Below are positions 8,495 through 57,477 of a stretch of 64,000 bases of DNA, in pieces. The notes below the pieces were generated by a model, which searched no databases, was not told the DNA's origin, and was given only the letters and a program-made list of their open reading frames with translations. The DNA lies in NCBI GenBank assembly GCA_035512635.1, contig DATKDR010000034.1:2471-66470 (forward strand), read 5' to 3'. Position 1 is the first letter of the stretch. Each line of letters starts with the position of its first letter. This DNA is from Longimicrobiales bacterium (GTDB lineage: Bacteria > Gemmatimonadota > Gemmatimonadetes > Longimicrobiales > RSA9). A program made the position numbers and the translations under genes.

Positions 8495-8524
8495 GCGCGC
8501 GGTGCCGCGCGCGGTGCCGCGCGA

Positions 8525-8579
8525 GGTGAGGTGAGGTGAGGTGAGGTGAGGTGAGGTGAGGTCAGGTGAGGTACGGTCA
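8525..8579. repeat. (GGTGA)n pentanucleotide array, 7 perfect + 4 degenerate units
   Basis: Direct reading of 8525-8579. It follows a perfect tandem 12-mer duplication GCGCGGTGCCGC (8497-8520), which sits just after the accA stop. Confidence 0.95.
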
Positions 8580-8667
8580 GCTGATTGGGTGGGGATCGGG
8601 GAGTCGTCAAAAACACTGTGAGGAATAGAGGCGGGGCTGGCGAGGGGACGAGTGAGTGCGCTGCGCG

Positions 8668-8694
8668 CCTCACCTCACCTCACCTCACCTCACC
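8668..8694. repeat. CC(TCACC)5 array, exact reverse complement of the 8525-8579 array
   Basis: Direct reading. It ends 10 nt before the PSP1 gene ATG at 8705. Confidence 0.95.
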
Positions 8695-8704
8695 TTTTCC
8701 CATT

Positions 8705-9598
8705 ATGGCTCAAATCATAGAAGTCAGCTTCAAGGGGAATCGCCGGGACTATTTCACGCTCGAAGGCGGCGAGGTGGCGCCGGACGACCACGTGATCGTG
8801 GAAGCGGACCGCGGCGAGGATCTCGGTCGGGTGACCGCGGCGGGCGCGGTCGCGGAGCGCAAATGCAGCGGCTCGAGCGGGTGCGCCGCGCCGGTGCCGG
8901 CCAGTCGCGTGCTGCGCACGGCGACCGCGGACGAGGTCGGGCGCTGGCTCGCGTTGCGCGAGGAGGAGGAGCGGATCCGTCGCACTGCGCGCGAGAAGGT
9001 ACAGCAGCACGGACTGAAGATGAAGATCAGCGAGGTCGAGTGGCAGTACGACCGGAAAAAGCTGACCATCTACTTCACGGCCGAGCGGCGCGTCGATTTT
9101 CGTGAGCTGGTGCGTGACCTCGCGCGTACCTTCCGCACACGCATCGAGCTGAAGCAGATCGGCGTGCGCGACGAGGCCGCGCTGCTGGGCGGCGTCGGCC
9201 GCTGCGGCCGCGAGCTGTGCTGCTCGACCTGGCTGCGCGAGATCAAGCCGGTCAGCCTCCAGCTCGCGAAGGACCAGCGGCTGTCGCTGAATCCCGCGCA
9301 GATCTCCGGCTGCTGCGGCCGCCTCATGTGCTGCCTGACCTACGAGCACGGCGCCTATGTCGAGGCCCGCAAGCGGTTCCCCCGCGAGGGCCGCACCATC
9401 CGCACCGGACGCGGGGACGAGCGTGTGGTCGGCGTCGACATCTGGCGCGAGCGCGTGCTGTTGCGCGACGACGAGGGAAATCGGCGTACCGTGCCGCTCG
9501 CGGATCTGCGCGAGGAAGTCAGCCGTGCCGGCGGTTCGCTGCGCGGCACCCGTCGCGATGCGCCCGCGCCCGCCCTCCCGGGAGAAGCCCTCGAGTGA
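8705..9598 (+). CDS. PSP1 domain protein (YaaT/RicT-like)
   Basis: I trimmed ORF 8585..9598 to ATG 8705 (MAQIIEVSFKGNRRDYF), because the upstream part is translation of the repeat. PSP1 C-terminal domain present (KLTIYFTAERRVDFRELVRDLARTFRTRIELKQIGVRDEA) with a Cys cluster CCSTW...CCGRLMCCL. Confidence 0.85.
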   Translation: MAQIIEVSFKGNRRDYFTLEGGEVAPDDHVIVEADRGEDLGRVTAAGAVAERKCSGSSGCAAPVPASRVLRTATADEVGRWLALREEEERIRRTAREKVQQHGLKMKISEVEWQYDRKKLTIYFTAERRVDFRELVRDLARTFRTRIELKQIGVRDEAALLGGVGRCGRELCCSTWLREIKPVSLQLAKDQRLSLNPAQISGCCGRLMCCLTYEHGAYVEARKRFPREGRTIRTGRGDERVVGVDIWRERVLLRDDEGNRRTVPLADLREEVSRAGGSLRGTRRDAPAPALPGEALE

Positions 9599-11220
9599 AC
9601 GGCATCATCGAAGGGCGGCGCGTCTACGTCACCACCGCGATCGACTACGCCAACGGCCCACCCCACCTCGGACACGCGTTCGAGAAGATCGGCGCGGACG
9701 CAGCCGTTCGCTATCTGCGACTGAAGAACATCCCTACGCGGTTCGCGATCGGCATGGACGAGCACGGCCTCAAGGTGCTCCAGAGCGCGGAGAGCGCCGG
9801 CATTACGCCGCAGGAATGGGTCGACGACATCGCCGCCCGCTTCCGCGACGCGTGGCGCCGACTGGGCATCAGCAACGACGATTTCATCCGCACCACCGAG
9901 CTCCGGCATCATCGTGCCGTCACCGAGCTGATCGGCCGCATGGGCGCCGCGGGCGACCTCTACGTCAGTACGTACGCGGGCTTCTATTGCGTGGGCTGTG
10001 AAGCGTACAAGGGCAGCGACGAGCTCGTCGCTGCCCCGGGAGCGGGAGCGGAGGCGGTATCCCGGAAGCATGGAGAGCCGGTCGCGGAGTGGGTCTGTCC
10101 GATCCATCCGACGCGCGAGCTGCTGTGGTACGAGGAGGAGAACTGGTTCTTCCGGCTCTCGCGCTACCAGGAGCGGCTGCTGCAGCTCCTGGACGAGCGG
10201 CCGGAGTTCGTGCAGCCGGACAGTCGCAGGAACGAGATCCGTCGGGTCATCGAGGGCGGGCTGGAGGACATTTCGGTATCGCGCAGCCGGCTGCCGTGGG
10301 GCGTGCCGTGGCCGGAGGATCCGCAGCACACGGTCTACGTCTGGATCGACGCGCTCACGAACTATCTGAGCGCGATCGGCTTTCCGGACGAGCGCTACCT
10401 CGACTGGTGGCCGGCGGGCGCGCACGTGATCGGCAAGGACATAACCCGCTTCCACTGCGTGTACTGGCCGGCGATGCTGCTCAGCGCGGGCATCGAGCCG
10501 CCAGTCAGCGTCTGGGCGCACGGCTTCGCGGAGTTCCAAGGGCGAAAGATGTCGAAGTCCGAAGGCGTGACGTTCGAGCTGGGCCCCGCGATCGAACGGT
10601 ACGGGCCCGACGCGCTGCGCTACTATCTGCTGCGTGAGGTGCCCTGGAGCGGGGACGGCGAGGTGTCGTGGGAGCGTTTCGACGAGCGCTACACGGCCGA
10701 CCTCGCCAACGACCTGGGCAATCTGGCGAATCGCTCGCTCACGATGATCGAGCGATACCGCGAGGGCGTGGTGCCCGCCGGCGAGCGGACCGAGCTCGAC
10801 GCGAGGCTCGCGGAGGCTCTCGTCGCCTACCGCTCCGCCATGGACTCCAGCCTGCTGCACAACGGCGCGGCCGCGGCGCTCGAGCTGGTATCGGACGCGA
10901 ACGGCTTCATCGAGGCCCGCGCGCCCTGGAAACAGGCCCGGGACCCGGATCTCGCCGCGGACCTCGACGGCACGCTCGCTTCGCTCGCGCGCACACTCGT
11001 CGCTCTCGCGAGCCTGCTCCATCCCTTCATGCCGGCCAAGATGGAGGAGCTGGCGCGCAGCGTCGGCCTCGAGGCCCCGCTGCCTCTGGATCGCCTCGCC
11101 GACTGGACCTCCGCGGGCACCCGCGTGCGGCGCGGGGAGATTCTTTTCCCACGTCCCGAGGTCGCGGCGCGGGCGCAGCCGGCTACCGCCGCAGGCGGGG
11201 CCGGATCCGGAAAGGTTTAG
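9595..11220 (+). CDS. metG: Methionyl-tRNA synthetase
   Basis: GTG 9595 overlaps the PSP1 stop (GTGA). HIGH-type motif (NGPPHLGHAFEKI), KMSKS (GRKMSKSEG) and an anticodon-binding region. 541 aa. Confidence 0.93.
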   Translation: MNGIIEGRRVYVTTAIDYANGPPHLGHAFEKIGADAAVRYLRLKNIPTRFAIGMDEHGLKVLQSAESAGITPQEWVDDIAARFRDAWRRLGISNDDFIRTTELRHHRAVTELIGRMGAAGDLYVSTYAGFYCVGCEAYKGSDELVAAPGAGAEAVSRKHGEPVAEWVCPIHPTRELLWYEEENWFFRLSRYQERLLQLLDERPEFVQPDSRRNEIRRVIEGGLEDISVSRSRLPWGVPWPEDPQHTVYVWIDALTNYLSAIGFPDERYLDWWPAGAHVIGKDITRFHCVYWPAMLLSAGIEPPVSVWAHGFAEFQGRKMSKSEGVTFELGPAIERYGPDALRYYLLREVPWSGDGEVSWERFDERYTADLANDLGNLANRSLTMIERYREGVVPAGERTELDARLAEALVAYRSAMDSSLLHNGAAAALELVSDANGFIEARAPWKQARDPDLAADLDGTLASLARTLVALASLLHPFMPAKMEELARSVGLEAPLPLDRLADWTSAGTRVRRGEILFPRPEVAARAQPATAAGGAGSGKV

Positions 11221-11360
11221 TCATCGGTCGGCATTCCGGTACCGGTCGGGCTGCGGGCCTGCTTCACGCCCGATAGTCTATCTTTCGTCGCAGCAATGCT
11301 TTAGGGAAACGGTACCGGCAAGGTACGGCCATTGCCCTTCCCAAACGACGGAAGCGGATG

Positions 11361-11389
11361 TTGACCCTCCCGGTGTATCCGGATATGGT
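11361..11389 (+). promoter_or_regulatory. Possible sigma70-type promoter for the M23 peptidase gene
   Basis: TTGACC (11361-11366), a 17-nt spacer, then TATGGT (11384-11389), about 90 nt upstream of ATG 11478. The promoter consensus of this lineage is unknown to me. Confidence 0.3.
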
Positions 11390-11477
11390 TGCGCCCGACT
11401 CCTCTTGTAAACCGACTCTTCCTACAGACAGACGCAAGTCGTGCGGGCCCCCCCGAGGGTCCGAGGAGCGATGTGAT

Positions 11478-12413
11478 ATGGCTCATCGGCGCTGGACGCT
11501 GCTGATCATCCCGGATGGTCAGGAAAGCATGCGGCAGATGCGGGTTTCGCAGCTGTTCGCGCGTGCCGTGTTCACCGGCCTGGCGGGCCTGATCGGCCTC
11601 CTGCTGTTCTTCGCGACGGGCTTCTTCGTAAAGGAGAGCCAGCAGCTGCGGGCGGATCGTCTGGCGGAGGAGAATCAGCGTCTGGTGGCGCAGCTGGACC
11701 GCCTGGGCGGCCGGCTGGACACCCTCCAGGTGTCGATGGCCGACCTGACGCAGCGGGACGAGCAGTACCGGCTGATTGCGGGTCTGCAGCCTCTGGATGC
11801 TGAAATCCAGCAGGCAGGTATCGGCGGTCCGGGCACGGAGACGCTCGAAGGCAACGCCCTGTACTCGATCGACGCGGAGCTGGGCCAGCGTGCCTTCGCC
11901 GCGACGAGCGACGTGGAGGCGATGATCCGACGCGCGGACGTGCTCAAGGCGAGCTGGTCGGAAGCGGTCGATTCGCTGCGCGTACGGCACGCACTGCTCC
12001 AGGCGACGCCGTCGATCTTCCCTACCCGCGGCATCGTGACGAGCGGCTTCACCCGCGCTCGTATGCACCCGATCCTGCACCGGGCGCGGCCGCACGAGGG
12101 GCTCGACATCGTCGCTCCGCGCGGCACCCCCATCCGCGCCTCGGCCAACGGCGTCGTCTCGTTCTCCGGGCGCCGCGGCGGCTACGGCCTGGTGGTGGAG
12201 ATCGACCATGGCTACGGCATGAAGACGCGCTACGCCCACATGTCTGCGCTCGGCGCGCGCGTGGGACAGCGTATCGAACGCGCCGAGGAGATCGGCCTGG
12301 TCGGCAGCACGGGGCTGTCCGTCTCGCCCCACCTCCATTACGAGGTGCTGATGAACGGCGTGCCGCAGAATCCCGCGCTCTACATTCTGGACGGCGAAGT
12401 CATTCCGGACTGA
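11478..12413 (+). CDS. M23 family (LytM-type) metallopeptidase with N-terminal membrane anchor and coiled coil
   Basis: I trimmed to ATG 11478 (GAGGAG upstream). Motifs HEGLDIVAPRGTPI ... GYGLVVEIDHGYG ... GSTGLSVSPHLHYEV give the HxxxD and HxH zinc ligands. Confidence 0.9.
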   Translation: MAHRRWTLLIIPDGQESMRQMRVSQLFARAVFTGLAGLIGLLLFFATGFFVKESQQLRADRLAEENQRLVAQLDRLGGRLDTLQVSMADLTQRDEQYRLIAGLQPLDAEIQQAGIGGPGTETLEGNALYSIDAELGQRAFAATSDVEAMIRRADVLKASWSEAVDSLRVRHALLQATPSIFPTRGIVTSGFTRARMHPILHRARPHEGLDIVAPRGTPIRASANGVVSFSGRRGGYGLVVEIDHGYGMKTRYAHMSALGARVGQRIERAEEIGLVGSTGLSVSPHLHYEVLMNGVPQNPALYILDGEVIPD

Positions 12414-12437
12414 GTCTCCGGCGGGAACGATCGACAG

Positions 12438-20012: not shown

Positions 20013-21776
20013 CTATCGCTTCGCGCCCTTGCGACCGGAGGACTTCTTCGAGCCCGCCTTCTTCCGGCTCGGCTTCTTCGCGCCTGCCTTCTTCGCGCCT
20101 GCCTTCTTCGCGCCCGCCTTCCTGGCGCTCGCCTTCTTCGCGGCTGGCTTCTTCGCGGCGGCCTTCTTTCCGGCGGACTTCTTCGCGCGCGGCTTCTTCG
20201 CGGCGGCCTTCTTTCCGGCCGCCTTCCTCGCAGTGGCTTTCTTCGCCGCCGACTTCTTCGCGGCCGCCTTCTTCGCCGCCAACTTCTTCGCGGCCGCCTT
20301 TTTCGCCGTGGACTTCTTCCTCGCCCGCTTCTTCGCGGCTGCAGCCTTCTTCACGGACTTCTTCGCGGCGGACTTTTTCGCGGCGGCCTTCTTTGCGGCC
20401 AGCTGCCTGGCCGAGGCCTCCCTGCCACTCGCCTTGCCAGCGGCGGCCGTCTTCGGCTCCGCCTTGCCGGCGGTCGGCGCGGCGGCCGCGGCCGGCCGCG
20501 ACGGCTCCGTCTTCGCCGGCGTAGGCTGCCTCTCCGTCGGTCGCGCCACGCTCACCTGAGGTGTCGGTCGGCGCGCCAGGTCGGACGGCCGAGGCGCGGG
20601 CGCCGTGATCGGACGCTCGATGCGGGCGGACTCGATGCGCCGTGTGTCCGGCGCCCGCCGCAGGTGGTCCGGCCGACGCGGATCGAAGGCGGCGGCAGCC
20701 GCGGCCGCGCGGGCCTCGGCTTCGGCGGCGGCCGCGGCCACCTCGCCCGCCACCCGGTCCCGCTCGCTCTCCGACGACGGCCGCGCGTAGCTGGTCTTGA
20801 GCAGCTTCATCGTCTCTTCCGGATCGATGTTGCCGCCCGTGATGACGCAGATGGTGCGCTTGCCCTCCGGCTTCCACGACTGCGCGAGCAGCGCCGCCAC
20901 CGCCGCCGCGCCCGAGTACTCGACGACCATGCTCGAGCGGGCGTGCAGAATCGCCGCCGCCTCGCGCATCGCCTCGTCGGGAACCGTCACGATCTCGTCG
21001 ACCAGCTGACGACAATGGGCGAACGTGATGTCGCCCGGCCGCACGGGCATCAAGCCGTCGGCAATCGTCTTCTTCGCCGGTACCGTCGTCGGCTCGCCCC
21101 GCTCGAGCGAGATCTTCATCGACGGAATCGCGTCGCTCTGCACGCCGATGATGCGGCAGTTCGGAATCGCCTCCCGCACCCACGCGCCGATGCCACTGAT
21201 CAGGCCGCCACCACCGACCGGCACCAGGATCGCCTGTACGTCCGGCCAGTCCGACACGATCTCGCGCCCTACCGTGCCCTGCCCCGCAACGATGTCCATG
21301 TCATCGTACGGGGGGATCATCGTCAGCTTCTCCTTCGCCGCGATCTTCTCCGCCCGCTCGCGCCGCTCCTCCGACGTGGTACCGGCGAGGATCACGCGCG
21401 CGCCCAGCTCCTGCGTGCGCTCGATCTTCACCTGCGGAGCGCTCTCCGGCATGACACAGGTCGCCTTGATGTCGAAGAAGCGCGCAGCCATCGCCACCGC
21501 CTGGGCATGATTCCCCGACGAGTAGGTGATGATGCCCCGACGCCGCTCGTACGACGACAGCCGCGACACTTTCGTGTAGGCGCCCCGGATCTTGAAGGAG
21601 CCCGCGAGCTGAAGGTTCTCGCACTTCAGCATGACCTGCGTGCCGAAGCGCTCGGTCAGCCAGCGCGCCGGCAGGAGCGGCGTACGTACAACCACCGCCG
21701 GCAGTCGGCGCGCGGCTTCCTCGATCGTCGACGTCGTGACGCGATTGATCACCTTCTTCTCCACTGTCTGGGTCAC
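20013..21776 (-). CDS. PLP-dependent threonine/serine dehydratase-like enzyme fused to a long Ala/Lys-rich histone-H1-like C-terminal tail
   Basis: GTG start at 21776. PLP lysine context ([16 protein letters not shown]), [10 protein letters not shown] and GGGGLISG. After about aa 325 comes a low-complexity linker, then about 150 aa of (A/S)AKK(A/S) repeats to the stop. Confidence 0.85.
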
Positions 21777-21780: not shown

Positions 21781-21823
21781 CGTAACCCGTATACCGTATA
21801 CGGTATACGGAGTACGGATTACG
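21781..21823. repeat. Heptamer array CGTAACC CGTATAC CGTATAC GGTATAC GGAGTAC GGATTAC forming a 24-nt perfect palindrome
   Basis: CCGTATACCGTATACGGTATACGG (21787-21810) is self-complementary. It fills the 48-nt gap between the gyrA stop (21825) and the dehydratase-like gene start (21776). Confidence 0.9.
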
Positions 21824-24527: not shown

Positions 24528-24674
24528 GCGACTTCTGGAGCGATGCTGGGACTCGGGCTGGGACGGATCCATCGGGCCGGGTTTCGGGACCGGGCAGAAT
24601 ACGGCTTTTTGGGGGTGTCGGCAAGGTGCCGCGGCGGTTTTTTTCTGCCGGTATGGCAGGGTGTGGGGCTTTGG

Positions 24675-24729
24675 CAGCGGGAGCGGGGGCGGGAGCGGGA
24701 GCGGCTCCTGCTCTCCGCTCTCCGCCCCC
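24675..24729. repeat. Opposed G-rich/C-rich hexa-heptamer arrays (GGGAGCG-like / CTCTCCG-like) forming an imperfect hairpin
   Basis: GCAGCGGGAGCGGGGGCGGGAGCGGGAGCGG followed by CTCCTGCTCTCCGCTCTCCGCCCCC. It lies 16 nt downstream of the minus-strand amidohydrolase stop (24745), so it is terminator-like for that gene. Confidence 0.7.
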
Positions 24730-33112: not shown

Positions 33113-33285
33113 GGGCTTGCTCCTGATTTCTGCGGATCTCCGTCGCGGAGGCCCTGGAGGCCGCGGGACTGCGACGGAGGTGTGCGGGTGCGTGCGCTGC
33201 ATGCTAACCAGCGGTCGGCGTCGCAGGCAACCGGAATGGGGATGGAACGATGCAGGAAGGGATGGGGGCTTTGGGCTTCGGGCTT

Positions 33286-36156
33286 CTACGCCGCCGCCGA
33301 CTGTGCGAGCAGCGGCCGGAGGTAGCGGGCCGTGTGGCTCGACTCGACCAGCGCGACCTCCTCGGGTGTGCCCATCGCCACGACGCGGCCACCGGCGGGT
33401 CCCGCGCCCGGGCCGAGGTCGATGATCCAGTCGGCCGCGCGGATCACCTCCAGGTTGTGCTCGATCACGAGGACGGTGTGCCCGGCATCGAGGAGGCGGT
33501 TCAGGACGCTCACGAGCGTCACCGCCTCGTTGCCGGAGAGTCCGGTCGTCGGCTCGTCCAGCACGTAAAGACGTCGGCCGCGCCGCTTGCCGGCGCTCAC
33601 CAGCTCGCGCGCGATCTTGAGCCGCTGCGCCTCGCCGCCTGACAGCGTCGGCGCCGGCTGGCCCAGGCGCAGGTAGCCCAGGCCGACCTGCTGAAGCTGC
33701 CACAGCATCTGACCGAGGCGATCCTCCTTGATGAAGAAGCGGATCGCCTCGTCGATCGTGAGGTCGAGCACCTGCCGGATGTTCAGCCCCTTCACGGTGA
33801 CTTCCAGGACCTCCGGCTTGTAGCGCGAGCCGCCGCACAGGTCGCAGGGCACGAAGACGTCGGCGAGGAAGACCATCTCGACCTGCACGAGACCGTCACC
33901 CTTGCACGCCTCGCAGCGGCCGCCCTTCACGTTGAAGGAGAACGTTCCGGCCGTGTAGCCGCGCTGCTTCGCGAGCGGCTGCGAGGCGAAGAGCTCGCGC
34001 ACGCGATCGAAGGCCTTGATGTAGGTGACCGGGTTCGAGCGCGGCGTCCGCCCGATCGGCGACTGATCGACGAGCACGACGGCGTCGAGCTGGCCGGCGC
34101 CTTCCAGCGCATCGAAACGGCCGACCGACTCGCCCAGATGCAGCTTCGCGGAAGTGGCACCCTCGAGCGTGCGCTCCAGCCCGCGATAGAGGACGTCGTG
34201 CACGAGCGTGCTCTTGCCCGACCCCGAAACGCCGGTCACGACGGTGAGCGCACCGATCGGCACGCGCACGTCCACGTCCTCCAGGTTGTGCAGTCGCGCC
34301 CCGCGCAGCTCGATCGCGCGTCCGTCGACGTCGCGACGACGCGTCCCCGCGCTCGCGCCCGCTCCCGCTCCGGCCCCCGCTCCGGAAGCGGTTCGCAGAT
34401 AGCGCCCGGTCACGGTGTCGGCATGCCGCAACGCCTCGACCGTACCCTGAAACACGAGCATGCCGCCCTTCTCGCCGCTGCCGGGACCGAGCTCGACGAC
34501 GTGATCGGCGCTCTCGATCGCGGCGGGATCGTGCTCCACGACGAGGACGGTGTTGCCGGCGTCGCGCAGCTGGCCGAGCAGTCCGAGCAGCCGGTCGTTG
34601 TCGCGCGGATGCAGCCCGATGGTCGGCTCGTCGAGCACATAGAGCGTGTCGACGAGGGCGGCACCGAGCGAGTTCGCGATGTTGATGCGCTGCGCCTCGC
34701 CGCCCGAGAGCGTACGCGTCTGACGCTCGAGCGTCAGGTAGCCGAGTCCGACGTCGTCCAGGAACCGCAGCCGCGAACGGAGCTCCTTCAGGATGGAGGC
34801 GGCGACGCCGCGCTCGTAGTCGGTGAGCCCGAGCGCGTCGATCCGGATGCGTAAATCCTCGATCGAGAGCGCCGAGGCCGAGGCGATGTCCATTTCGTCC
34901 ACGTGCACGTACAGCGCTTCCGGCCGCAGCCGCGCGCCGCGGCAGTCGGGACATTCGATCGCCGTCTGGTATTGCCGCAGGAAGACGCGAATGTACTGCT
35001 TGTAGCGCTTCTTCTCGCGCGACTTCATGAACGACAGCACGCCCCTGAAGCCTTTCCCGCCGCGGATCACGACCTTTCTGAACTTCTCGGGCAGCCTCTC
35101 CCACGCGTCTTTCACGTTCACGCCCTGCGCCTTCGCGTGCTCGAGCAGCTTCTTCCGGTACTTCCTGTAGCGCGGCTTCTCCCACGGATCGATGGCGCCC
35201 TTGTCGAGCGAGCGGGTCGTGTCGGGGACGATCAGCGCCTCGTCGTACTCGAGCACGGCGCCGAAGCCGGTGCAGCGCGGACAGGAGCCGTACGGGTTGT
35301 TGAACGAGAAGAGGCGGGGCGACGGCTCGATGAAAGCGATGTCGGGATGATCGGGACAGCGGAAGCGCTCGGTGAAACGCAGGGTCGCACCCTCGCCTTC
35401 CACGACCGCGATCGCCTCCCCTTCCCCCTCCGCGAACGCGGTCGACAGGGAATCGGCGAGACGGCCACGCAGGTCGTCGACCCCGCCGCCGTCGCCGTCC
35501 GCGGGGATGCGCAGCCGATCGACGACGACCAGGAGCTCGCGCGAGCCGGCGAGGTCGTGACCGAGCTTCTGCGCCGCTTCGGCGCCCGGCTCGTCCAGCC
35601 GCAGGGTCACGCCCGCGACGAGGACCCGCTGGAAGCCGAGCGCGCGCAGGTTCTCGACGATCGTCTTGTGATCCACGCGCGCACTGCGCGGCAGGGGGAA
35701 CGCGACCTGGAAGCGGCTGCCGGCCGGAAGCGCGAGCGCGCGATCCGTGGCCGACTGCACGGTGTCCGGCCGCACGTCGCGCCCGCACGCGGGGCAGTGC
35801 ACGCGGCCCACGCGCGCCCACAGCAGGCGCAGGTAGTCGTGCACCTCGGTCGCGGTGCCCACGGTCGAGCGGCTGGTCTTGGTCGGGTTCTTCTGCTCGA
35901 TCGCGACCGCCGGGCTGATGCCTTCCACACGGTCGACCGCGGGCTTCTCCATGCGATCGAGGAACTGCTTCGCGTACGACGAGAGGGACTCGATGTAGCG
36001 GCGCTGTCCCTCCGCGTAGATCGTGTCGAAGGCGAGCGACGACTTGCCCGATCCGCTCGGACCGGTGACGACGATGAGCGACCGGCGCGGCAGGTCGAGA
36101 TCGATGCCCTTGAGGTTGTGCTGCCGTGCATTGCGCACGACGATCTTCGACTTCAT
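33286..36156 (-). CDS. uvrA: Excinuclease ABC subunit A
   Basis: I trimmed to ATG 36156 ([23 protein letters not shown]). Two ABC modules ([23 protein letters not shown]; [11 protein letters not shown]), zinc-finger cysteines, and two LSGGEAQR motifs. Confidence 0.97.
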
Positions 36157-36377
36157 CGCTGCTCCACTGCCCGCTGACCTGCACTGCGCTCGTCCGGCCG
36201 ACGCCGCGCGGGCTCTCGTCCCGCGCGCCGGCAATTCGTCCCCGAGCCAATACCCCGCAGGGATCCCTCGGCGTCATAGCTGTCGAGGATGGTCGAAACC
36301 GTGAGCCACTGCGTGCCGTAGGGTGCCGCGAGGCAACAACCATCGACCATGAACGATCCCCGCAGGAGGGTATCCAT

Positions 36378-37760: not shown

Positions 37761-38849
37761 ATGACTGATCAGCAGCGCCGTGCTCCCGAAACCGATCGCA
37801 GCGACCGCAGCTCGCAACGCAGCAAATCCGACGACGCGACGACGACCACCATAGGACGCGAAGGCAGGGGCGGCATGTTCCGGCGGGTGTCGGGTCGCAA
37901 CGCCATGGCGGCTGGTCTCGCGGCCACCTCGTTCGGAGCGCTCGCCGGCGCCACGGCAGGCCCGACGTCGCGGACGGCATCCGGCTCGGGCGAACTAGCG
38001 GGTGCGGGCGACGACGTGGTGCGCGATCTCGAGATCCGTCAGGACTGGGACATCGAAGTCACGCGCAACGATCAGGTGGAGTTCTTCATCGAGTTCCTGA
38101 TGGGCAAGAACCACGACAAGACGAAGCTCTGGCTGGAGCGCCTCGGCCACTACGGCCCGATGATCCAGGAGAGGCTCGCGGAGCGTGGCATGCCGCAGGA
38201 TCTGATCTGGCTCGCCATGATCGAGAGCGGACTCGACGCGAATGCTTACTCCTCGGCGGATGCGGCCGGTATCTGGCAGTTCATTGAGCCGACCGGCGAG
38301 CGGTACGGGCTCGAGGTCTCGAAGTACGTCGACGAGCGACGCAATCCCGAGAAGGCAACGGACGCGGCGCTCGACTATCTGCAGGAGCTCCACGAACGCT
38401 TCGGAAGCTGGTACCTCGCCGCGGCTTCCTACAACACCGGCGAGAATCGCGTCGATCGCGTGCTCAACGAGCGCGCGGGCGGTCAGAAGGGCGTCGAGTC
38501 CGTCTTCTGGGACATCGCCGCACACCTGCCGCGCGAGACCCGCGACTACGTTCCCGTGATGCTCGCGATGGGCCACATCGGCAAGGACCCCGAGCAGTTC
38601 GGGTTCACCGACCTCCAGCTGCAGGAGGCGCGGGCCTTCGACATGGTGCGTCTGCCCGGCGGAACCCGTCTGGAGAAGGTCGCCCAGACGCTCGGCATGG
38701 ACCCCGACTCGCTCTACGACCTGAATCCCGAGCTGATCCAGCAGATGACGCCGCCCGACCGTGAATGGGACGTGCGTATCCCGGCCGGCCAGTCGGAAAC
38801 CTTCCTCGCCCGGTGGACCGGCGGCGCGACCAGCGGGCAGCAGGCGTGA
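37761..38849 (+). CDS. Lytic murein transglycosylase (SLT domain, MltD-like); start uncertain (alternative ATG at 37875)
   Basis: WLAMIESGLDANAYSSADAAGIWQF (catalytic Glu context) and AASYNTGENRV. Confidence 0.85.
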   Translation: MTDQQRRAPETDRSDRSSQRSKSDDATTTTIGREGRGGMFRRVSGRNAMAAGLAATSFGALAGATAGPTSRTASGSGELAGAGDDVVRDLEIRQDWDIEVTRNDQVEFFIEFLMGKNHDKTKLWLERLGHYGPMIQERLAERGMPQDLIWLAMIESGLDANAYSSADAAGIWQFIEPTGERYGLEVSKYVDERRNPEKATDAALDYLQELHERFGSWYLAAASYNTGENRVDRVLNERAGGQKGVESVFWDIAAHLPRETRDYVPVMLAMGHIGKDPEQFGFTDLQLQEARAFDMVRLPGGTRLEKVAQTLGMDPDSLYDLNPELIQQMTPPDREWDVRIPAGQSETFLARWTGGATSGQQA

Positions 38850-38855
38850 AAGCAG

Positions 38856-38876
38856 GCGCTAGGCGCTAGGCACTAG
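38856..38876. repeat. Heptamer array GCGCTAG GCGCTAG GCACTAG
   Basis: Direct reading. It begins 7 nt after the transglycosylase stop (38847-38849). Confidence 0.9.
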
Positions 38877-38882
38877 CAACAG

Positions 38883-38920
38883 AAAAAAAAAACGGGCGGT
38901 CCCTCGAGGGGATCGCCCGT
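38883..38920 (-). terminator. Rho-independent terminator of the DEAD-box helicase gene
   Basis: On the minus strand: ACGGGCGATCCCCTCGAGGGACCGCCCGT hairpin (ACGGGCG/CGCCCGT plus inner CCTCGAGG), followed by T10 (A10 at 38883-38892 on the plus strand). Confidence 0.8.
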
Positions 38921-38943
38921 ATCTGTTCACGCGCACTCTTTGG

Positions 38944-38978
38944 CCAGAGCCTAGAGCCTAGTGCCTAGTGCCTAGCTC
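38944..38978. repeat. Heptamer array CCAGAGC CTAGAGC CTAGTGC CTAGTGC CTAGCTC (near reverse complement of the 38856 array)
   Basis: Direct reading. The helicase stop codon (CTA = TAG, 38972-38974) lies inside the last unit. Confidence 0.9.
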
Positions 38979-43472: not shown

Positions 43473-45341
43473 ATGACCGGGCACGAAGAGGAGATCCTCG
43501 GGAAAGCATACGACGGCCGGCTGATGCGCCGGCTGCTGCGTTACCTGCGTCCGTACCGCGCCCGCGTCGCGCTCGCCATCCTGCTGCTGCTGACCGCCGC
43601 GGCGGTCGAGCTGGTCGGACCCTGGCTGACCAAGATCGCGATCGACGAGGCGATCCCCGCCGGCGATCGCTCTCTGCTGCTGCTGCTCACGCTCGGCTTC
43701 GTCGCCGCGCTGCAGCTCGCCTTCGTGCTCGAGTTCGCGCAGACCCTGCTCACCACCTGGCTCGGCCAGCGCATCATGTTCGATCTCCGGCGCGAGATCT
43801 TCGGACACCTCCAGCGCCTGCGCCTGCCATTCCTCGACCGCAATCCGGTCGGTCGACTAATGACCCGCGTGACCAACGACGTCGAAGTGCTGAACGAGCT
43901 GTTCAGCTCGGGCATCGTGACGGTCTTCGGCGATATTTTCACGCTGGTCGGCATCCTCGTCGTGATGCTGCTGCTCGACTGGCGCCTCGCGCTCGTGTCT
44001 TACGCCGTCCTGCCGCTGGTGATGCTCGTCGCGTTCGTCTTCCGCGCGCGCATCCGCGACGCGTATCGCGACATCCGCACGAGGCTCGCGCGCATCAATG
44101 CGTTCCTCCAGGAACGAATCACGGGCATGTCGGTCGTGAAGCTCTTCGGCCGCGAGCGGGAAACCGGCGAGCGCTTCCGCCGCATCGACGCCGAGTACCT
44201 GGATGCGCACCTGCGCTCGATCACCTATTACGCGCTGTTCTTTCCGGTCATCGAGGTGCTGACCGCGGTCGCGCTCGCGCTCATCATCGCCTACGGCGGT
44301 TCGCAGGTGCTGGACGGCACGATCACCGTCGGCGTCGTCGCCGCCTTCCTCCAGTACGCGCGCCGCTTCTTCCGTCCCATCCAGGATCTCTCCGAAAAAT
44401 ACAACATGCTCCAGGGCGCGATGGCGTCGTCGGAGCGGATCTTCAGGCTGCTGGACGAGCCGGTAGCGGATCCGGGATCCCGGATTCCGGATGCGGGACA
44501 GGCCGCGCCGCCTGCCGAGCCAAGGGGTTTCATATCCGGCATCCGGAATCGGGGATCCGGAATCCTGTCACGCGGCGAGCTCGAGTTCAGGAATGTCTGG
44601 TTCGCCTACATCGACCGGGAGGATGGCGAGCCGGAATGGGTGCTGCGCGACGTCAGCTTCCGCATACCGGCGGGCGAGCGGGTGGCCGTGGTCGGTCACA
44701 CGGGCGCGGGCAAGACCACGCTCGCGAGTCTGCTGATGCGCTTCTACGAGCCGCAGCGGGGGGAGATCCTGTTCGACGGCGTGCCGATTCGGGACATTCC
44801 CGTCCGTGAGCTACGCGACCGCATCGGCCTGGTGCTCCAGGACGTGTTTCTGTTCAGCCGCGACGTCGCCTACAACATTCGATTCGGGCGAGACGACATT
44901 TCCGAGGCGGCGATGCGCGCGGCGGCGGAAAGCGTCGGTGCCGCCGACTTCATCGCGAAGCTGCCCCAGCAATACGCCACACCGCTGGGCGAGCGGGGCG
45001 TCACGCTGTCGGTGGGCCAGCGGCAGCTGCTGTCGTTCGCGCGCGCCCTCGCCTTCGATCCGCTGGTGCTGATCCTGGACGAGGCGACCAGCTCCGTGGA
45101 CTCGTCGCTCGAGGAGCGGATCGAGCGTGCGGTCGAGACGCTGCTGCGCGGCCGCACCGCGCTGGTCATCGCGCACCGCCTGTCGACGGTGCAGACGGCC
45201 GATCGGATTCTCGTGCTGCACCACGGCGAGCTGCGCGAGCAGGGCACGCACACCGAGCTGCTGGCGACGGACGGCCTGTACTCGCGCCTGCACGAGCTGC
45301 AGTTCGCCGGTAGCGGAGCGGCTGCGGTCGCAAACCCGTAA
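43473..45341 (+). CDS. ABC exporter, fused TMD-NBD (MsbA/ABCB type)
   Basis: Six TM segments, Walker A (GHTGAGKTTL), signature (LSVGQRQLL), Walker B (LILDEATS) and an H-loop (IAHRL). An unusual long TMD-NBD linker is encoded by an inverted heptamer repeat. Confidence 0.93.
   Translation: MTGHEEEILGKAYDGRLMRRLLRYLRPYRARVALAILLLLTAAAVELVGPWLTKIAIDEAIPAGDRSLLLLLTLGFVAALQLAFVLEFAQTLLTTWLGQRIMFDLRREIFGHLQRLRLPFLDRNPVGRLMTRVTNDVEVLNELFSSGIVTVFGDIFTLVGILVVMLLLDWRLALVSYAVLPLVMLVAFVFRARIRDAYRDIRTRLARINAFLQERITGMSVVKLFGRERETGERFRRIDAEYLDAHLRSITYYALFFPVIEVLTAVALALIIAYGGSQVLDGTITVGVVAAFLQYARRFFRPIQDLSEKYNMLQGAMASSERIFRLLDEPVADPGSRIPDAGQAAPPAEPRGFISGIRNRGSGILSRGELEFRNVWFAYIDREDGEPEWVLRDVSFRIPAGERVAVVGHTGAGKTTLASLLMRFYEPQRGEILFDGVPIRDIPVRELRDRIGLVLQDVFLFSRDVAYNIRFGRDDISEAAMRAAAESVGAADFIAKLPQQYATPLGERGVTLSVGQRQLLSFARALAFDPLVLILDEATSSVDSSLEERIERAVETLLRGRTALVIAHRLSTVQTADRILVLHHGELREQGTHTELLATDGLYSRLHELQFAGSGAAAVANP
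44467..44566. repeat. Opposed heptamer arrays (CGGATCC GGGATCC CGGATTC CGGATGC ... GCATCCG GAATCGG GGATCCG GAATCCT) inside the ABC exporter CDS
   Basis: Left arm 44467-44494 and right arm 44539-44566 (with a weaker unit from 44532), separated by a 44-nt spacer. The arms are near-perfect reverse complements. The region is in frame and encodes DPGSRIPDAG...ISGIRNRGSGILS. Confidence 0.85.
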
Positions 45342-45837: not shown

Positions 45838-47483
45838 TGCGCGTGTTCGTGCATGGCGGCGACGAGCACCTGCGCCGCGGACTGAACGACGCCGCGCACC
45901 GACTCGGCGCCGATATCGTCGACTGGCGCGACCGTGCTTCCGCCGACGGCAACGGGGGCGCCGGACCGCATGTCCTGGTCGCCGGCGCGGCCGACATCGA
46001 CGACCTGCGCAAGCTCCGGCTGGAAGCCCGCCGGGAAGGTGCCGCTCTGGTCGTGGCCTGCACGAGCGCGGACCAGTGCCGTACGGCCGCCCTCGCCCAT
46101 GCCGACGACTGGCTGCTCCTTCCCGGTGACGCGTCCGAGCAGGGCGAGCTGGCGATGCGCATCGAGACGGCGCGTCACCGCGTCTCCGGCGTCGGCCATG
46201 CCCAGGAGGCATCCGACGCGGCCGACCTGATCCGCTACGAGGAGCTGCTCTACGACAAGCTGACCGGCTTCCCCACGCTGCCGGTGATGATCGAGCAGGC
46301 GCGCGCGCTGCTCGAGCGCCGCAACGAGCTGACCATCCTCTACATCCACTTCGTGCGCTACTCGAAGATCGAGGAGATCTACGGCTGGCAGAAGCTGGAC
46401 GACGTGCTCGAGACGACGTCGCACGCGGTGCGCGACTTCTACTCCCGCGAGCACGGGCAGCGCGACCGGATCATGATGGTGTCGCACACCGGCGACGACG
46501 ACTTCATCCTCTTCACCCACGTGCCGGCCGAAGGGGAAGAGGCCCGCAGTCGCATGAGCGACCTCTCGGAGCGCCTCGAAGCCACGCTGAAGGAGCGGCT
46601 GGAGAAGGAGCACGGCGAGGACATCGCCGCGCTGTGCGGCATCTACGTCGGCGCCTCGACCGTCTTCCGCAATCCCAAGATCCGCACCGAGCGCCTCATC
46701 TACCGGGGCCTGCGCGAAGCCGCCGAGGCCGCACGCGGCGCCGAGCAGTGGGAGCGCCGGCAGAAGGTCGACGACCTGAAGGCGACCGTCAACGAGGGCG
46801 CCGTCTTCATCGAGTATCACCCGATCATCATCACGGATACCGGCAAGGTGTACGGCTACGAGGCGCTCGCGCGAGGCATGCGACGCCACCTGCGCTCGCC
46901 CGAAGTGCTCTTCGAGGTCGCGGCCGAGGCCAACCTCGTGTGGGAGCTGAGCCGGCTGCTGCGGCGGGAGGCCGTTTCCGGGATCATCAATCGACTGCCC
47001 GCCGATCAGCTCCTGTTCCTCAACATCGATCCCCACGACTTCGACGATCCGACGTTCCGCAACATGGAGCCGGCCGATCTAGGCATCGAGGATCCGAGCC
47101 GCATCGTGCTCGAGATCACCGAGCGCACGGCGATCACGGACTATCCGCGCTTCCAGGAATACCTGACGCGTTTCCGCCAGATGGGCTTCCGCTTCGCGGT
47201 CGACGACGCGGGCAGCGGCTACGCGGGCCTGGGCTCCATCGCCAACCTCGAGCCCGACTTCATCAAGCTCGACATCTCGCTGATCGGCAACATCGACTCG
47301 AACTTCCTGAAGCAGCATCTCGTGGAGACGATGGTCGGCTTCGCTGAGACGCACGGCGCCATGGTGGTCGCCGAAGGCGTCGAGCGCGAAGAGGAATTCG
47401 AAACGGTCAAGCAGCTCGGCGTACACCTCATCCAGGGGTTCCTCTTCCACAAGCCCCTGTACTCGAAGGAAGTGCCGAGGTGA
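45837..47483 (+). CDS. Degenerate-GGDEF / EAL domain protein (putative c-di-GMP phosphodiesterase) with N-terminal receiver-like region
   Basis: GTG 45837 overlaps the regulator stop (TAGTG). The GGDEF position reads TGDDDF. EAL signatures are intact (YEALARG, LEITER, DDAGSGYAG, KLD, EGVE...QGF). Confidence 0.88.
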   Translation: MRVFVHGGDEHLRRGLNDAAHRLGADIVDWRDRASADGNGGAGPHVLVAGAADIDDLRKLRLEARREGAALVVACTSADQCRTAALAHADDWLLLPGDASEQGELAMRIETARHRVSGVGHAQEASDAADLIRYEELLYDKLTGFPTLPVMIEQARALLERRNELTILYIHFVRYSKIEEIYGWQKLDDVLETTSHAVRDFYSREHGQRDRIMMVSHTGDDDFILFTHVPAEGEEARSRMSDLSERLEATLKERLEKEHGEDIAALCGIYVGASTVFRNPKIRTERLIYRGLREAAEAARGAEQWERRQKVDDLKATVNEGAVFIEYHPIIITDTGKVYGYEALARGMRRHLRSPEVLFEVAAEANLVWELSRLLRREAVSGIINRLPADQLLFLNIDPHDFDDPTFRNMEPADLGIEDPSRIVLEITERTAITDYPRFQEYLTRFRQMGFRFAVDDAGSGYAGLGSIANLEPDFIKLDISLIGNIDSNFLKQHLVETMVGFAETHGAMVVAEGVEREEEFETVKQLGVHLIQGFLFHKPLYSKEVPR

Positions 47484-47489
47484 AGCGAA

Positions 47490-47519
47490 GGTGAGGTGAG
47501 GTGAGGTGAGGTAAGGTGG
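47490..47519. repeat. (GGTGA)4 GGTAA GGTGG array
   Basis: Direct reading. It begins 7 nt after the EAL gene stop (47481-47483). Confidence 0.95.
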
Positions 47520-47693
47520 CTGGTCCATCCGGAAGGCAGAAACCGAGCACGTTCACGTTGAACGTTCACATTCACGACCGATTCGGACGCCGCCCACATT
47601 TGTCCTGTCGTTCGGTCGCGTCGGACGCACCTGAACCTGAACGTTCGACCTGGGCGTGCACGGTAGTTCGCGTCGCCGACCCACCGGCCCGGT

Positions 47694-47779
47694 CCTCACC
47701 TCACCTCACCTCAACGCCACCTCACCTCACCTCACCTCACCTCACCTCACCTTGACGCCACCTCACCTCACCTCACCTT
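47694..47779. repeat. Three (TCACC)n blocks (3, 6 and 3 units) separated by the linkers TCAACGCCA / TTGACGCCA
   Basis: Direct reading. The stop codon of the minus-strand gene (TCA, 47773-47775) lies in the third block. Confidence 0.95.
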
Positions 47780-56851: not shown

Positions 56852-56855
56852 CCCC

Positions 56856-57242
56856 TCAGCTCGCGGCTTCGGTGAAGCGCGCGAACGTGATCGCGTTGCC
56901 CGCAGGATCCCGCACGATCAGCTCGTCCGCTCCGTAGAACGTCGTCCGTCTGGGCACGATCGGCGTCACCCCGACGAGCGCCGCCTCGATCGCATCCAGA
57001 TCGTCCACCTCGATGAACAGAAAGCTCGACGCGGGCGCGGTGTCCGCGAGCGACGGCACGTCGGCACGGACGCTGTCCACCGTCTGGTACATGATCTCCA
57101 CCCTGCCCTTCACCAGGATCACGAAGCCGAGCCGGCCCTCGTGCGGCAGCTCGACCGTCTTCTCGAAGCCCAGCCGCTCGACCCAGAACGGCAGCACGGG
57201 CTCGATCTCCTCGACCATCAGCACAGGCGTGATCTTTTTCAT
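56856..57242 (-). CDS. VOC (glyoxalase/bleomycin-resistance) family protein
   Basis: 128 aa showing a paired beta-alpha-beta-beta-beta module pattern (PVLMVEEIEPVLPFWVERLGFEK ... FLFIEVDDLDA ... FYGADELIVRDPAGN). Confidence 0.75.
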   Translation of the reverse strand: MKKITPVLMVEEIEPVLPFWVERLGFEKTVELPHEGRLGFVILVKGRVEIMYQTVDSVRADVPSLADTAPASSFLFIEVDDLDAIEAALVGVTPIVPRRTTFYGADELIVRDPAGNAITFARFTEAAS

Positions 57243-57299
57243 GGAACGCTCGGGGTATGAGTAGCCGTCGCCCGCGGTTATGTTGGCGCGCCTCGTTGG

Positions 57300-57339
57300 G
57301 CGCTAGGCGCTAGGCGCTAGGCGCTAGGCGCTAGGCGCC
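57300..57339. repeat. (GCGCTAG)5 GCGCC heptamer array
   Basis: Direct reading. Located in the divergent VOC / leuS intergenic region. Confidence 0.95.
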
Positions 57340-57378
57340 GACAGTACGCTGCCGCTCCGACAACCGGAAGCCCGGAGT

Positions 57379-57462
57379 CCAGAGCCCGGAGCATCGAGCC
57401 CAGAGCCCAGAGCCTAGAGCCCAGAGCCTAGAGCCTAGAGCCTAGAGCCTAGAGTCTAGAGC
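57379..57462. repeat. 12-unit heptamer array C[CT]AGAGC (with 2-3 degenerate units)
   Basis: Direct reading. It ends 15 nt before the leuS ATG (57478). The unit is the reverse complement of GCGCTAG with one mismatch. Confidence 0.95.
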
Positions 57463-57477
57463 CCAAAGAACCTATCG

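Follow-up and report, generated by a model that had tools for sequence, protein, structure and literature searches.

Opposed tandem arrays in the window

The 64,000-nucleotide stretch of DNA analysed here (the window; positions 2,471 to 66,470 of contig DATKDR010000034.1, assembly GCA_035512635.1) comes from a Longimicrobiales bacterium and holds seven loci, labelled A to G, that are built on units of 5–7 nt repeated in tandem and, in the clearest cases, followed at some distance by an array of the reverse-complementary unit. A reading made without database searches (the sequence-only reading) had pointed them out as a lineage-specific class of repeat. These opposed arrays are a real, non-random repeat architecture, and it is well supported that each element is an inverted pair of simple sequence repeats, remodelled in place, rather than one of a set of mobile copies. 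Comparison with relatives shows the predicted arm-arm pairing to be retained despite changes in sequence, and placement and polarity to be regular; we infer that the elements act as stem-loops on transcripts.

The window has a G+C content of 69% overall (67–73% along its whole length) and its source is a short-read metagenome bin. Because the product of its leuS gene reaches at most 69% identity in the species collection, where the top matches are Longimicrobiales and other Gemmatimonadota bins, and because 93% of sampled window words are present in the best-matching soil metagenome (run X1) and 25–35% in several other soils, the window can be assigned to an uncultured Longimicrobiales population living in soil, whose close relatives are present in other soils. 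An exact 50-mer of the window had no match in the species collection.

Arrays were located with Tandem Repeats Finder (TRF), by direct reading of the sequence and by a separate scan of our own for periods of 5–8 nt in at least three copies, with 100 dinucleotide shuffles as the null; genes were named by a Pfam scan of ten neighbours. All seven loci of the sequence-only reading were recovered (Table 1). The layout it ascribed to all of them, array, spacer and reverse-complement array, is clear in A, B, C and D, with E, F and G as weaker cases. The positions it gave them, past the 3' ends of genes, in a divergent region and within a gene, hold in the Pfam context, and two unit families do recur at distant loci (one at A and B, the other at C and D).

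Table 1. Positions, composition and genetic context of the seven loci (positions are those of the window)
Locus	Feature	Positions	Strand	Remarks
A	Context: accA (+) left, ricT/PSP1 (+) right			Co-directional; Pfam
A	Whole element, clear opposed pair GGTGA/TCACC	8523-8695		
A	Accessory 12-nt tandem repeat, GCGCGCGGTGCC x2.8	8495-8528	+	TRF; begins right after accA stop 8492-8494
A	Left G-rich arm, (GGTGA)x10 at 8523-8572, degenerate to 8584 (GGTCA, GGTAC)	8523-8584	+	TRF, sequence
A	Spacer/loop	8585-8667	+	Unlike B spacer; a related strain shows substitutions and small indels
A	Right C-rich arm, (TCACC)x5.6	8668-8695	+	Followed by TTTTCCCATT and ricT (PSP1) start codon 8705
B	Context: EAL/GGDEF gene (+) left, DUF4015 gene (-) right			Convergent; Pfam
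B	Whole element, clear opposed pair GGTGA/TCACC	47477-47778		
B	Outer left arm, (GGTGA)x8	47477-47518	+	First unit holds EAL/GGDEF TGA stop 47481-47483
B	Inner left arm, (CACGTT/GTTCAC) hexamers	47542-47574	+	
B	Inner right arm, (CTGAAC) hexamers	47632-47664	+	79% complementary to inner left arm
B	Outer right arm, (TCACC)x16 as 41-nt higher-order repeat	47694-47778	+	Last units hold DUF4015 TGA stop 47773-47775 (-)
C	Context: SLT transglycosylase (+) left, DEAD-box helicase (-) right			Convergent; Pfam
C	Whole element, clear opposed pair	38854-38975		
C	Left arm, (AGGCGCT)x2 + AGGCACT (x3.3)	38854-38876	+	5 nt past SLT stop 38847-38849
C	Centre, classical bidirectional terminator: A10 run and GC-rich hairpin, T-rich on other strand	38883-38919	.	
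C	Right arm, (AGAGCCT)x2 + (AGTGCCT)x2 (x4.3)	about 38942-38975	+	Outermost CTAG is helicase TAG stop 38972-38974 (-)
D	Context: glyoxalase-family gene (-) left, leuS (+) right			Divergent; Pfam
D	Whole element, clear opposed pair	57294-57465		
D	Left arm, (GGCGCTA)x5.7	about 57294-57338	+	57 nt from glyoxalase start 57242 (-), past a block of ~50 nt conserved in relatives
D	Right arm, (AGCCCAG/AGCCTAG)x14, inner end degenerate	57369-57465	+	Ends 12 nt ahead of leuS start 57478
E	Context: PALP-HC2 gene (-) left, gyrA (-) right			Co-directional; Pfam
E	Single array of (CCGTATA/CGGTATA) heptads	21781-21823	-	Fills 48-nt spacer from gyrA stop 21825 to PALP-HC2 start 21776
F	Context: gyrA (-) left, amidohydrolase (-) right			Co-directional, 16 nt past amidohydrolase stop; Pfam
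F	(GGGAGC)x5, then CTCTCCG-type heptads, no spacer	24673-24729	-	16 nt past amidohydrolase stop 24745 (-)
G	Context: inside ABC exporter gene			Coding; Pfam
G	Degenerate CGGATCC-type heptads 44467-44498 and inverse 44534-44565	44467-44565	+	In frame, ABC exporter 43473-45341

Stop codons precede the left arms of A, B and C by 0–28 nt. On the right, the arms of A and D stop 9–12 nt short of start codons, and the arms of B and C include the convergent gene's stop codon. Five loci (A, B, C, D and F) have the G-rich arm in first position. The units of A and B are perfectly complementary, with near-perfect complementarity over up to 28–42 nt, and the right arm of A is a perfect 28-bp complement of the left. 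At B, a second, nested opposed pair made of hexamers had been missed by the sequence-only reading, and the outer right arm consists of two 41-nt copies, each a mirror image of the entire left arm down to its irregular ends. In E, three self-complementary heptads make a perfect palindrome of 24 nt, F sets a hexamer array (6 nt) against a heptamer array (7 nt), and G lies in the linker that joins the exporter's membrane domain to its ATP-binding domain.

Several further features accompany these loci. The 12-nt repeat of A, ahead of the (GGTGA)n arm, has a predicted 12-bp hairpin of its own and is one unit shorter in soil run X2. Along the right arm of D, AGCCCAG alternates with AGCCTAG; a C/T change at CTAG is that expected from very-short-patch-type repair, and the alternation may have a bearing on the avoidance of CTAG. 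The unpaired form also occurs in the window, as a single (GGGCTTC)x3 array at the stop of a minus-strand gene (33266-33286; gene 33286-36234) that has no opposed partner. Next to E, the minus-strand gene 20013-21776 contains about 24 copies of a 15-nt period (20043-20400), which encode a Lys/Ala-rich tail identified by Pfam as histone H1-like HC2; its fusion to a pyridoxal-phosphate enzyme (PALP) domain is unusual.

Departure from chance and integrity of the assembly

The window contains 14 arrays of period 5–8 against a shuffle mean of 1.16 (maximum 6 in the 100 shuffles) and five opposed pairs, at A, B, C and D, against 0.01, and permutation of units and strands over the observed array positions gives P = 0.003. 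With four paired loci in 64 kb, compared with ~21 in 3.08 Mb of other fetched loci that were already enriched in arrays, the window is unusually rich in opposed pairs.

The sequence-only reading had also worried that collapsed or chimeric joins through low-complexity reads might have produced the arrays. Short-read bins such as the source are open to this, assemblers break at very high-depth repeats such as these arrays, and the spacers of A and D are missing from the Logan contigs of run X1, where they have depth 0, probably through pruning of a low-depth path between repeat nodes of very high depth. An artefact is nonetheless scarcely credible. Each type of junction at A and D (flank-arm, arm-spacer-arm and arm-flank) was recovered in contigs of independent soil runs, and X1 contigs match the window identically across G. 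Relatives keep the accA-ricT and glyoxalase-leuS adjacencies, with related arrays between the genes in single contigs; complete isolate genomes hold identical arrays, and the arrays are shorter than the reads.

Comparison with orthologous loci

The main new result of this work is evidence from orthologous loci, designated by L numbers, for conserved pairing between the arms. At A, in three relatives with 90–92% identity in RicT (L431, L430 and L432), the left arm is purine-rich and the right arm complementary to it; the arms are only quasi-periodic in L430 and L432 (GTGAAGTGAGGTTGAKGTGAGAAA and its mirror), whereas the window has a perfect (GGTGA)n. A long-range helix of 25 bp is kept in four orthologs: 96.9% of its cells are paired, and in ten of its pairs both partners have changed in a compensatory manner. 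None of 500 shuffles attained this level of pairing, which compares with 43–55% in slid controls. On the sense strand the cells that depart from Watson-Crick pairing comprise seven G.U and one A.C, and the sense RNAs of the A orthologs fold 14–27 kcal/mol better than the antisense. Both the G.U bias and the energy gap suggest that the pairing takes place in the sense transcript. A more distant relative (L433, 84% identity) has (GGCTCTG)4 at the stop codon of this site instead.

At D, some 50 nt by the glyoxalase start are conserved among the orthologs. Downstream of this block, L434 (95%) has degenerate heptads and L436 (85%) has heptads on the right side only. Since L435 (87%) carries a different opposed heptamer pair, (GTCAGCT)5/(AGCTGAY)7, with 39 predicted long-range pairs and a z score of -5.1, the architecture of D persists while its unit is replaced.

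The remaining orthologs appear to capture elements at different stages of assembly. The counterpart of B in L199 is a 57-nt hexamer pair without spacer, (AACGTC)x3/(GACGTT)x3, like the inner pair of the window, and the outer GGTGA/TCACC arms were added in the lineage of the window. In L198 and L199 the central terminator of C, with its A-run, hairpin and T-run, is kept in spacers of 96 and 118 nt (122 in the window), where it stands without arrays; those of C are add-ons around a conserved terminator. The linker at G, which spans LLDEP to RGEIEFRNVWF, measures 90 nt in L198 and L199 (~83–85% protein identity) and, in relatives of ~86% identity, 111 nt in L428, 138 nt in L427, where only the left heptamer arm is present, and 171 nt in L426, which like the window (156 nt) has both arms; every variant is in frame. 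This series shows that G grew stepwise and in place, one arm first. Variation between relatives, which the sequence-only reading had proposed to look for, is thus found in both copy number and unit sequence at orthologous sites.

The relatives also showed some repeats outside these seven sites. In L198 (GCA_036377695.1, 7901-8170), opposed units of 17–18 nt, GCGCAGGATGGCGCTTCG x4 and CCATCCTGCCGGCACGG x3, lie between two minus-strand genes; the orthologous spacer in L199 is 60 nt long and has no repeat. A Longimicrobiales contig (L336, 1300-1700) has more than 30 consecutive heptads that drift through GAGAGGG, TAGAGGC, TAGAGCC, GGCAAGA and GGCAGGA and are followed by CGAACT hexamer arrays; in such arrays, mutation seems to proceed from one unit to the next. 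The exporter family of G has a second hypervariable, low-complexity insertion site past a FAY motif (P0026, P0042, P0031 and others), of up to ~100 residues in P0042.

Length variation of this kind raises the question of phase-variable contingency loci, in which slippage would alter promoter spacing (as at D) or reading frame (as at G). The number of nucleotides in a unit is not a multiple of three, D is part of a divergent regulatory region, G sits in coding sequence, strains differ slightly in length, and the heptamer repeat of hmw, discussed below, is a phase-variable precedent. Such a role is very improbable all the same: the neighbours are housekeeping genes (accA, ricT, leuS, gyrA, rpsC/rplP), most arrays lie past stop codons, all linker variants at G are in frame, and the G array is degenerate and of the same length in two soil populations. 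For the arrays of Xanthomonas, Rehm et al. came to the same negative conclusion (PMC4692102).

Distribution, polarity and mobility

Exact scans for (GGCGCTA)3, (GGTGA)6 and (AGAGCCT)3 returned, among the matches listed, nearly every phylum (for GGTGA archaea too), complete isolate genomes included. Heptamer arrays occur about once per 30 kb in unselected leuS loci; any heptamer would therefore match that widely, and breadth says nothing of the status of a unit. Again among the matches listed, an opposed TAGCGCC-like array lies no more than 400 nt from ~17% of (GGCGCTA)n arrays, and ~17% of (AGAGCCT)n arrays likewise face an opposed AGGCTCT-like one, against 2–3 matches for reversed-unit controls; for (GGTGA)n the figure is only 1 of 114. 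Among the taxa with opposed heptamer pairs are Acidobacteriota, Planctomycetota, Patescibacteria (candidate phyla radiation) and Proteobacteria, and seven is the dominant period among arrays in the fetched loci. Contrary to the sequence-only reading, the class is thus not lineage-specific: its units are found in all major phyla and opposed heptamer pairs in several.

The polarity seen in the window is also widespread. The G-rich arm comes first in 19 of the 20 opposed (AGAGCCT)n cases among the matches listed, and strict pairs of all kinds number 19 with the G-rich arm first and 6 with the opposite order. Halomonas (L089, L094, L139 and others) has (GGCGCTA)n 3' of a terminator-like hairpin and C-rich heptads of the GCGCC[CT]AGCG type 5' of it, a C-first order opposite to that of almost all other taxa.

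In soil runs the arrays have 50–300 times the depth of their flanks. The left arm of A reaches 8085x in X1 against 26x for its flanks, showing that the community contains many copies of the GGTGA unit, and for D the right arm reaches 6931x against ~40x. At least 8 soil contigs link (GGTGA)n with (TCACC)n across other short spacers, and at least 12 others link (GGCGCTA)n with (AGAGCCT)n in the same way. Together with the depths, this shows that many loci in these soil communities carry the paired form.

Recurrence of the same arm pair at many loci in four soils, over short and different spacers, would be expected of non-autonomous mobile elements spread by a transposase, with later expansion of the arms, and the inverted-arm layout resembles that of REPINs, doublets of repetitive extragenic palindromic (REP) sequences. 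The sequence-only reading had described the elements as like MITEs (miniature inverted-repeat transposable elements), REPs or bacterial interspersed mosaic elements (BIMEs). The present data largely refute mobility, which we rate as highly improbable. The MITE/REP reading was rejected when the loci that share arms, A and B on the one hand and C and D on the other, proved to align below shuffled scores in their spacers and 60-nt flanks, with no shared similarity. Neither target-site duplications nor flanking direct repeats were found at A to D. The arms are runs of 5–7-nt units that are not individually palindromic, as REP units are, and share nothing beyond the unit. Orthologous spacers are of similar length and differ by graded array content rather than by empty sites, as is consistent with conversion and stepwise growth in place and not with insertion, and there was no transposase among the ten Pfam-scanned neighbours in the 64-kb window. 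A search of the whole window against Rfam, which the sequence-only reading had suggested, matched no family at gathering score and none at E <= 0.1.

A different way to account for recurrence is to regard the arrays as head-to-head binding sites for a nucleoid-associated or global regulator, or for an RNA-binding protein. Periodic identical units suit multimeric binders, and such sites were proposed for paired repeats in Geobacter (PMC2700814) and for the TAACTGA repeats of Beggiatoa (PMC4679880). The imperfect pair GGCGCTA/TAGAGCC recurs at C, D, a ribosomal-protein locus (L429, below) and at least 12 soil contigs, for which a hairpin alone offers no explanation. A sequence-specific protein is nevertheless disfavoured because many units occur in one genome and even at one locus, and we consider binding sites distinctly improbable: at least six unrelated units are found in one 64-kb window, different units occupy orthologous loci, a 5–7-bp period sets successive sites on different faces of the helix, and no candidate protein is known.

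Predicted folding and relation to transcription signals

The sequence-only reading had credited the arms with the capacity to form long stems, and folding bears this out: long stems are predicted at all loci, with z scores of -3.7 to -9.7 relative to dinucleotide shuffles. The fold of E on the sense (-) strand has -28.8 kcal/mol (z -5.7), and F gives z scores of -4.2 and -5.3. In A and its orthologs a tract of three or four U residues lies 0–4 nt from the stem; D and L429 have no U tract there. Intrinsic terminators of the normal kind exist in the genome (12437-12474, and the centre of C). A consensus terminator scan called none of the arrays, but it misses even the obvious terminator of C, and the consensus promoter and terminator scans are uninformative.

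The L429 element comes from a strict gapped scan of metagenome contigs for GGCGCTA...AGAGCCT, a single locus without statistics. On the minus strand of this soil contig (1-200), the rpsC stop is followed by 9 nt, (GGCGCTA)4, 28 nt, (AGAGCCT)4, 13 nt and the rplP start. The genes rpsC and rplP are a conserved and normally co-transcribed pair of the S10 ribosomal-protein operon, so read-through presumably occurs at this element, which argues against obligatory termination. Terminator, 3'-end stabilizer and structural roles, all raised by the sequence-only reading, are possible.

The elements could also act at the level of DNA, where G-quadruplexes and i-motifs, or cruciforms, might influence transcription, replication or supercoiling. 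Two-tetrad quadruplexes are conceivable for (GGTGA)n, the (GGGAGC)n arm of F has G3 tracts, G-first polarity is a property of G-rich strands, and the spacers of E and F (0–7 nt) are compatible with cruciforms, which these two loci could extrude. Spacers of 57–194 nt, however, disfavour cruciform extrusion, and for this reason cruciforms are disfavoured at A to D. G-quadruplexes as a general principle are disfavoured because most units lack G tracts (GGCGCTA, AGAGCCT, GTCAGCT, GTATACC and CGGATCC among them), and the conserved feature is the pairing of arms, not the presence of G tracts. Overall, a role through such DNA structures is improbable. The quadruplex hypothesis was put forward for the GGGAATC repeats of Xanthomonas, which do form quadruplexes in vitro, but Rehm et al. 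saw no regulatory effect of them (PMC4692102).

Possible action on transcripts

The account we favour, although only tentatively and with chances a little short of even, is that the elements are transcribed long stem-loops with arms built by slippage, and that they act at the level of RNA. It is well supported that they arise and change where they stand, within intergenic spacers and in one case within a permissive linker of a protein, and that replication slippage inside each arm alters copy number. Selection for pairing maintains their complementarity or, alternatively, one arm serves to correct the other, through the template switching known from quasi-palindromes. Transcribed within 3' untranslated regions (UTRs), intercistronic spacers or 5' leaders, the elements would form stems of 20–40 bp in which the leading, G-rich arm either adjoins the upstream stop or provides it, and the C-rich arm ends ~9–13 nt ahead of the next start.

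Such stems may stop 3' exonucleases and, as at C, lengthen or reinforce terminator hairpins; they may be substrates of RNase III, by analogy with hmw, and so direct processing and decay of adjacent cistrons; and they may fold a GC-rich spacer away, leaving a start region poor in Shine-Dalgarno sequences unpaired. Changes in copy number would tune stem length. Protection of 3' ends or reinforcement of terminators, RNase III processing and sequestration of the spacer are likely effects because of the analogy with REP elements and the hmw hairpin. With respect to the last of these, motifs of the Shine-Dalgarno type (GGAG/GAGG/AGGA, 5–13 nt upstream) precede ~4 of 23 putative start codons in the window, which suggests low use of this signal in the lineage. 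The idea of (GGTGA)n as a Shine-Dalgarno mimic or ribosome sponge was dropped in view of this low count and of the fact that the arm close to the start is the C-rich one.

The stop codons carried by many units, which the sequence-only reading had noted, are frequent, and often provide the stop of the gene itself, but they are not universal. Periods of 5 and 7 with TGA or TAG place stops in all three frames, and arrays supply the stop of an open reading frame of at least 150 codons in 35 of 91 and 25 of 72 cases. Stops in all three frames were rejected as the function, since the L199 hexamer pair and the GTATACC, CGGATCC and GTCAGCT units lack them. CTAG units, moreover, give stops on both strands and still show a polarity of 19:1. 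Embedded stop codons are a side effect and not an explanation.

A number of observations weigh against action on transcripts. The loops of A to D are long (57–194 nt). The right unit of C and D is not the exact reverse complement of the left, TAGAGCC standing in place of TAGCGCC, which costs one mismatch per heptad. A 30-bp stem within a coding region, as at G, is hard to see as functional. The arrays at C are dispensable in L198 and L199, where none surround the terminator; the predicted folding of the D ortholog L434 does not exceed that of shuffles (z -0.7); and at 84–87% identity arrays are absent or different at orthologous sites. The covariation at A comes from four sequences with periodic arms, in which register shifts or concerted copying between arms could mimic compensation, and its G.U bias could stem from transcription-associated C-to-T mutation and not from selection. 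Only one metatranscriptome run holds window words, 7% of them, so transcription, cleavage and 3' ends are inferred.

Several of these points are equally those expected of the main rival explanation, a neutral by-product in which slippage and template switching inflate pre-existing inverted repeats into tolerated arrays with no function of their own. Such an origin would account for rapid gain, loss and replacement of units at orthologous sites, for relatives that keep the C terminator without arrays, for an element growing within a protein linker and for the many unrelated functions of the adjacent genes. The general abundance of heptamer arrays, at ~1 per 30 kb in unselected leuS loci, and their dominance over other periods match the over-representation of heptamers in bacterial genomes described by Mrazek 2007, as cited in PMC4692102. 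A neutral origin explains turnover as well as RNA-level action does, but polarity and placement less well: the G-rich arm is first by 19:1, and arms are consistently positioned with respect to stop and start codons. The pairing at A, kept in four orthologs through changes on both sides and with a G.U bias on the sense strand, and the architecture of D, which outlasts replacement of its unit, also speak against it, although concerted copying could explain both. We therefore regard it as unlikely on balance while taking it seriously.

Left unexplained by RNA-level action as set out above are the G-first order, the recurrence of the imperfect GGCGCTA/TAGAGCC pair over unrelated spacers and the preference for heptamers. 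A bolder proposal, which we hold to be rather unlikely, is that opposed arrays are phylum-spanning, self-renewing 'periodic-stem' RNA hairpins, whose complementarity is kept as units drift or are replaced. Growth and shrinkage would then proceed through transcription, hairpin formation and RNase III, as at hmw, and not by plain polymerase slippage. G-first order would be a functional rule that places stops and structure 3' of genes and, in bacteria poor in Shine-Dalgarno sequences, G-poor, unpaired leaders 5', and the elements would serve as tunable insulators between cistrons or in UTRs, even within ribosomal-protein operons.

Whichever of these applies, the arrays have practical consequences, because they break short-read assemblies and the stops that they supply affect gene calling in metagenome bins. 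If action on transcripts is correct, it would provide a testable rule for transcript punctuation in soil bacteria of high G+C content that make little use of Shine-Dalgarno sequences.

Comparison with known systems

The sequence-only reading did not recognize the elements as a described family, and a literature search for literal unit strings gave no matches. The architecture is nevertheless of an already published, unexplained kind, found here in a new phylum: the same arrangement has been reported in Xanthomonas (PMC4692102) and Geobacter metallireducens (PMC2700814), and a heptamer hairpin has been dissected in Haemophilus influenzae (PMC12721329). The pairing of heptamers in inverted orientation has been noted twice before, with its function unexplained. 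What the window adds is a compact natural series, with several unit families, nested pairs, a coding instance and orthologs at different stages, and this series points to pairing between arms in the sense transcript rather than to G-quadruplexes or a binding protein.

Rehm et al. 2015 (PLoS One) described ~185 arrays of the GGGAATC heptamer in each of two Xanthomonas genomes, with tandem 7-nt units near a reverse-complement array, always convergent and with the G-rich array first. The G-rich strand lies within 50 bp past stops (on the coding strand) or within 50 bp upstream of open reading frames (on the non-coding strand), lengths vary between species while the type of pair is kept, and most repeats are transcribed, with no function found (PMC4692102). 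As in the window, some arrays overlap the stop codon and the neighbours are housekeeping genes of diverse kinds. Judged by the same features, the window has short-unit arrays (3.3–16 copies, periods 5, 6 and 7), convergent reverse-complement arrays that are G-first in A, B, C, D and F, and, at A to D, a G-rich strand within 50 bp of a stop or start. Length varies with the pair type kept at the A orthologs and at D ortholog L435, partly at B and not at C. The geometry relative to stop and start codons and the preservation of pair type despite varying length are therefore shared features. The window differs in phylum, in its units, which include pentamers, and in having several unit families, nested pairs and one in-frame coding instance, and it adds comparative evidence of conserved arm-arm pairing. 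The G3 tracts that underlie the quadruplex idea are missing from most of its units: they occur only in F, as (GGGAGC)n, and GGTGA, GGCGCTA and AGAGCCT have at most GG. Such tracts are a trait of the published example and not of the architecture.

In Geobacter metallireducens, Aklujkar et al. 2009 found four classes of paired tandem sites on opposite strands, each with 3–5 tandem units of 5–9 nt (GTTGCTYN, TCTCCGTS[Y], MTYCTGA and CCYTC), and guessed that they bind integration host factor (IHF) or HU (PMC2700814). As in our case, the distance between sites varies, and dozens of loci lie both between and within genes. The units differ from those of the window, however; they were read, without tests, as sites of the IHF/HU type, and some are associated with insertion sequences.

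The short tandemly repeated repetitive (STRR) sequences of cyanobacteria are intergenic direct repeats of heptamers. Related to these are the TAACTGA heptamers described by MacGregor 2015, which lie in intergenic regions just upstream of starts, also in ribosomal-protein operons, and are found in Beggiatoaceae, Cyanobacteria and Bacteroidetes (PMC4679880). Period-7 intergenic arrays, frequent proximity to start codons and stop codons within the unit are common to these repeats and to the window. The TAACTGA and STRR sequences, in contrast, are almost always single direct arrays; the Guaymas genome has 169 direct sets and one indirect (PMC4679880).

REP, BIME and REPIN sequences, known from enterobacteria and pseudomonads, share with the elements of the window an intergenic and inverted arrangement with variable linkers, often past 3' ends, an abundance within each genome and a capacity to form stem-loops, which in REPs stabilize the upstream mRNA. 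They are conserved imperfect palindromes of 20–40 nt with a 5' GTAG motif, mobilized by RAYTs (REP-associated tyrosine transposases). The arms in the window are instead non-palindromic runs of 5–7 nt with no conserved full-length consensus, and show growth in place.

The only experimentally dissected analogue is the leader of hmw1A in H. influenzae, where Rapun-Araiz et al. 2025 (Nucleic Acids Research) showed that (ATCTTTC)n forms one arm of a long RNA hairpin that RNase III cleaves, and that change in repeat number needs transcription, the hairpin and RNase III (PMC12721329). There, as proposed here, a heptamer repeat makes up an arm of a long imperfect RNA hairpin by a start codon, and the stem is the functional unit. 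The hmw hairpin differs in that only one of its arms is a repeat, the other being a G-rich stretch, and in that the pyrimidine-rich arm comes first; it belongs to a phase-variable adhesin of a pathogen, and cleavage by RNase III, shown there, is for the window proposed by analogy. If the interpretation offered here is true, the RNase III/repeat-hairpin mechanism of Haemophilus would extend to environmental phyla.

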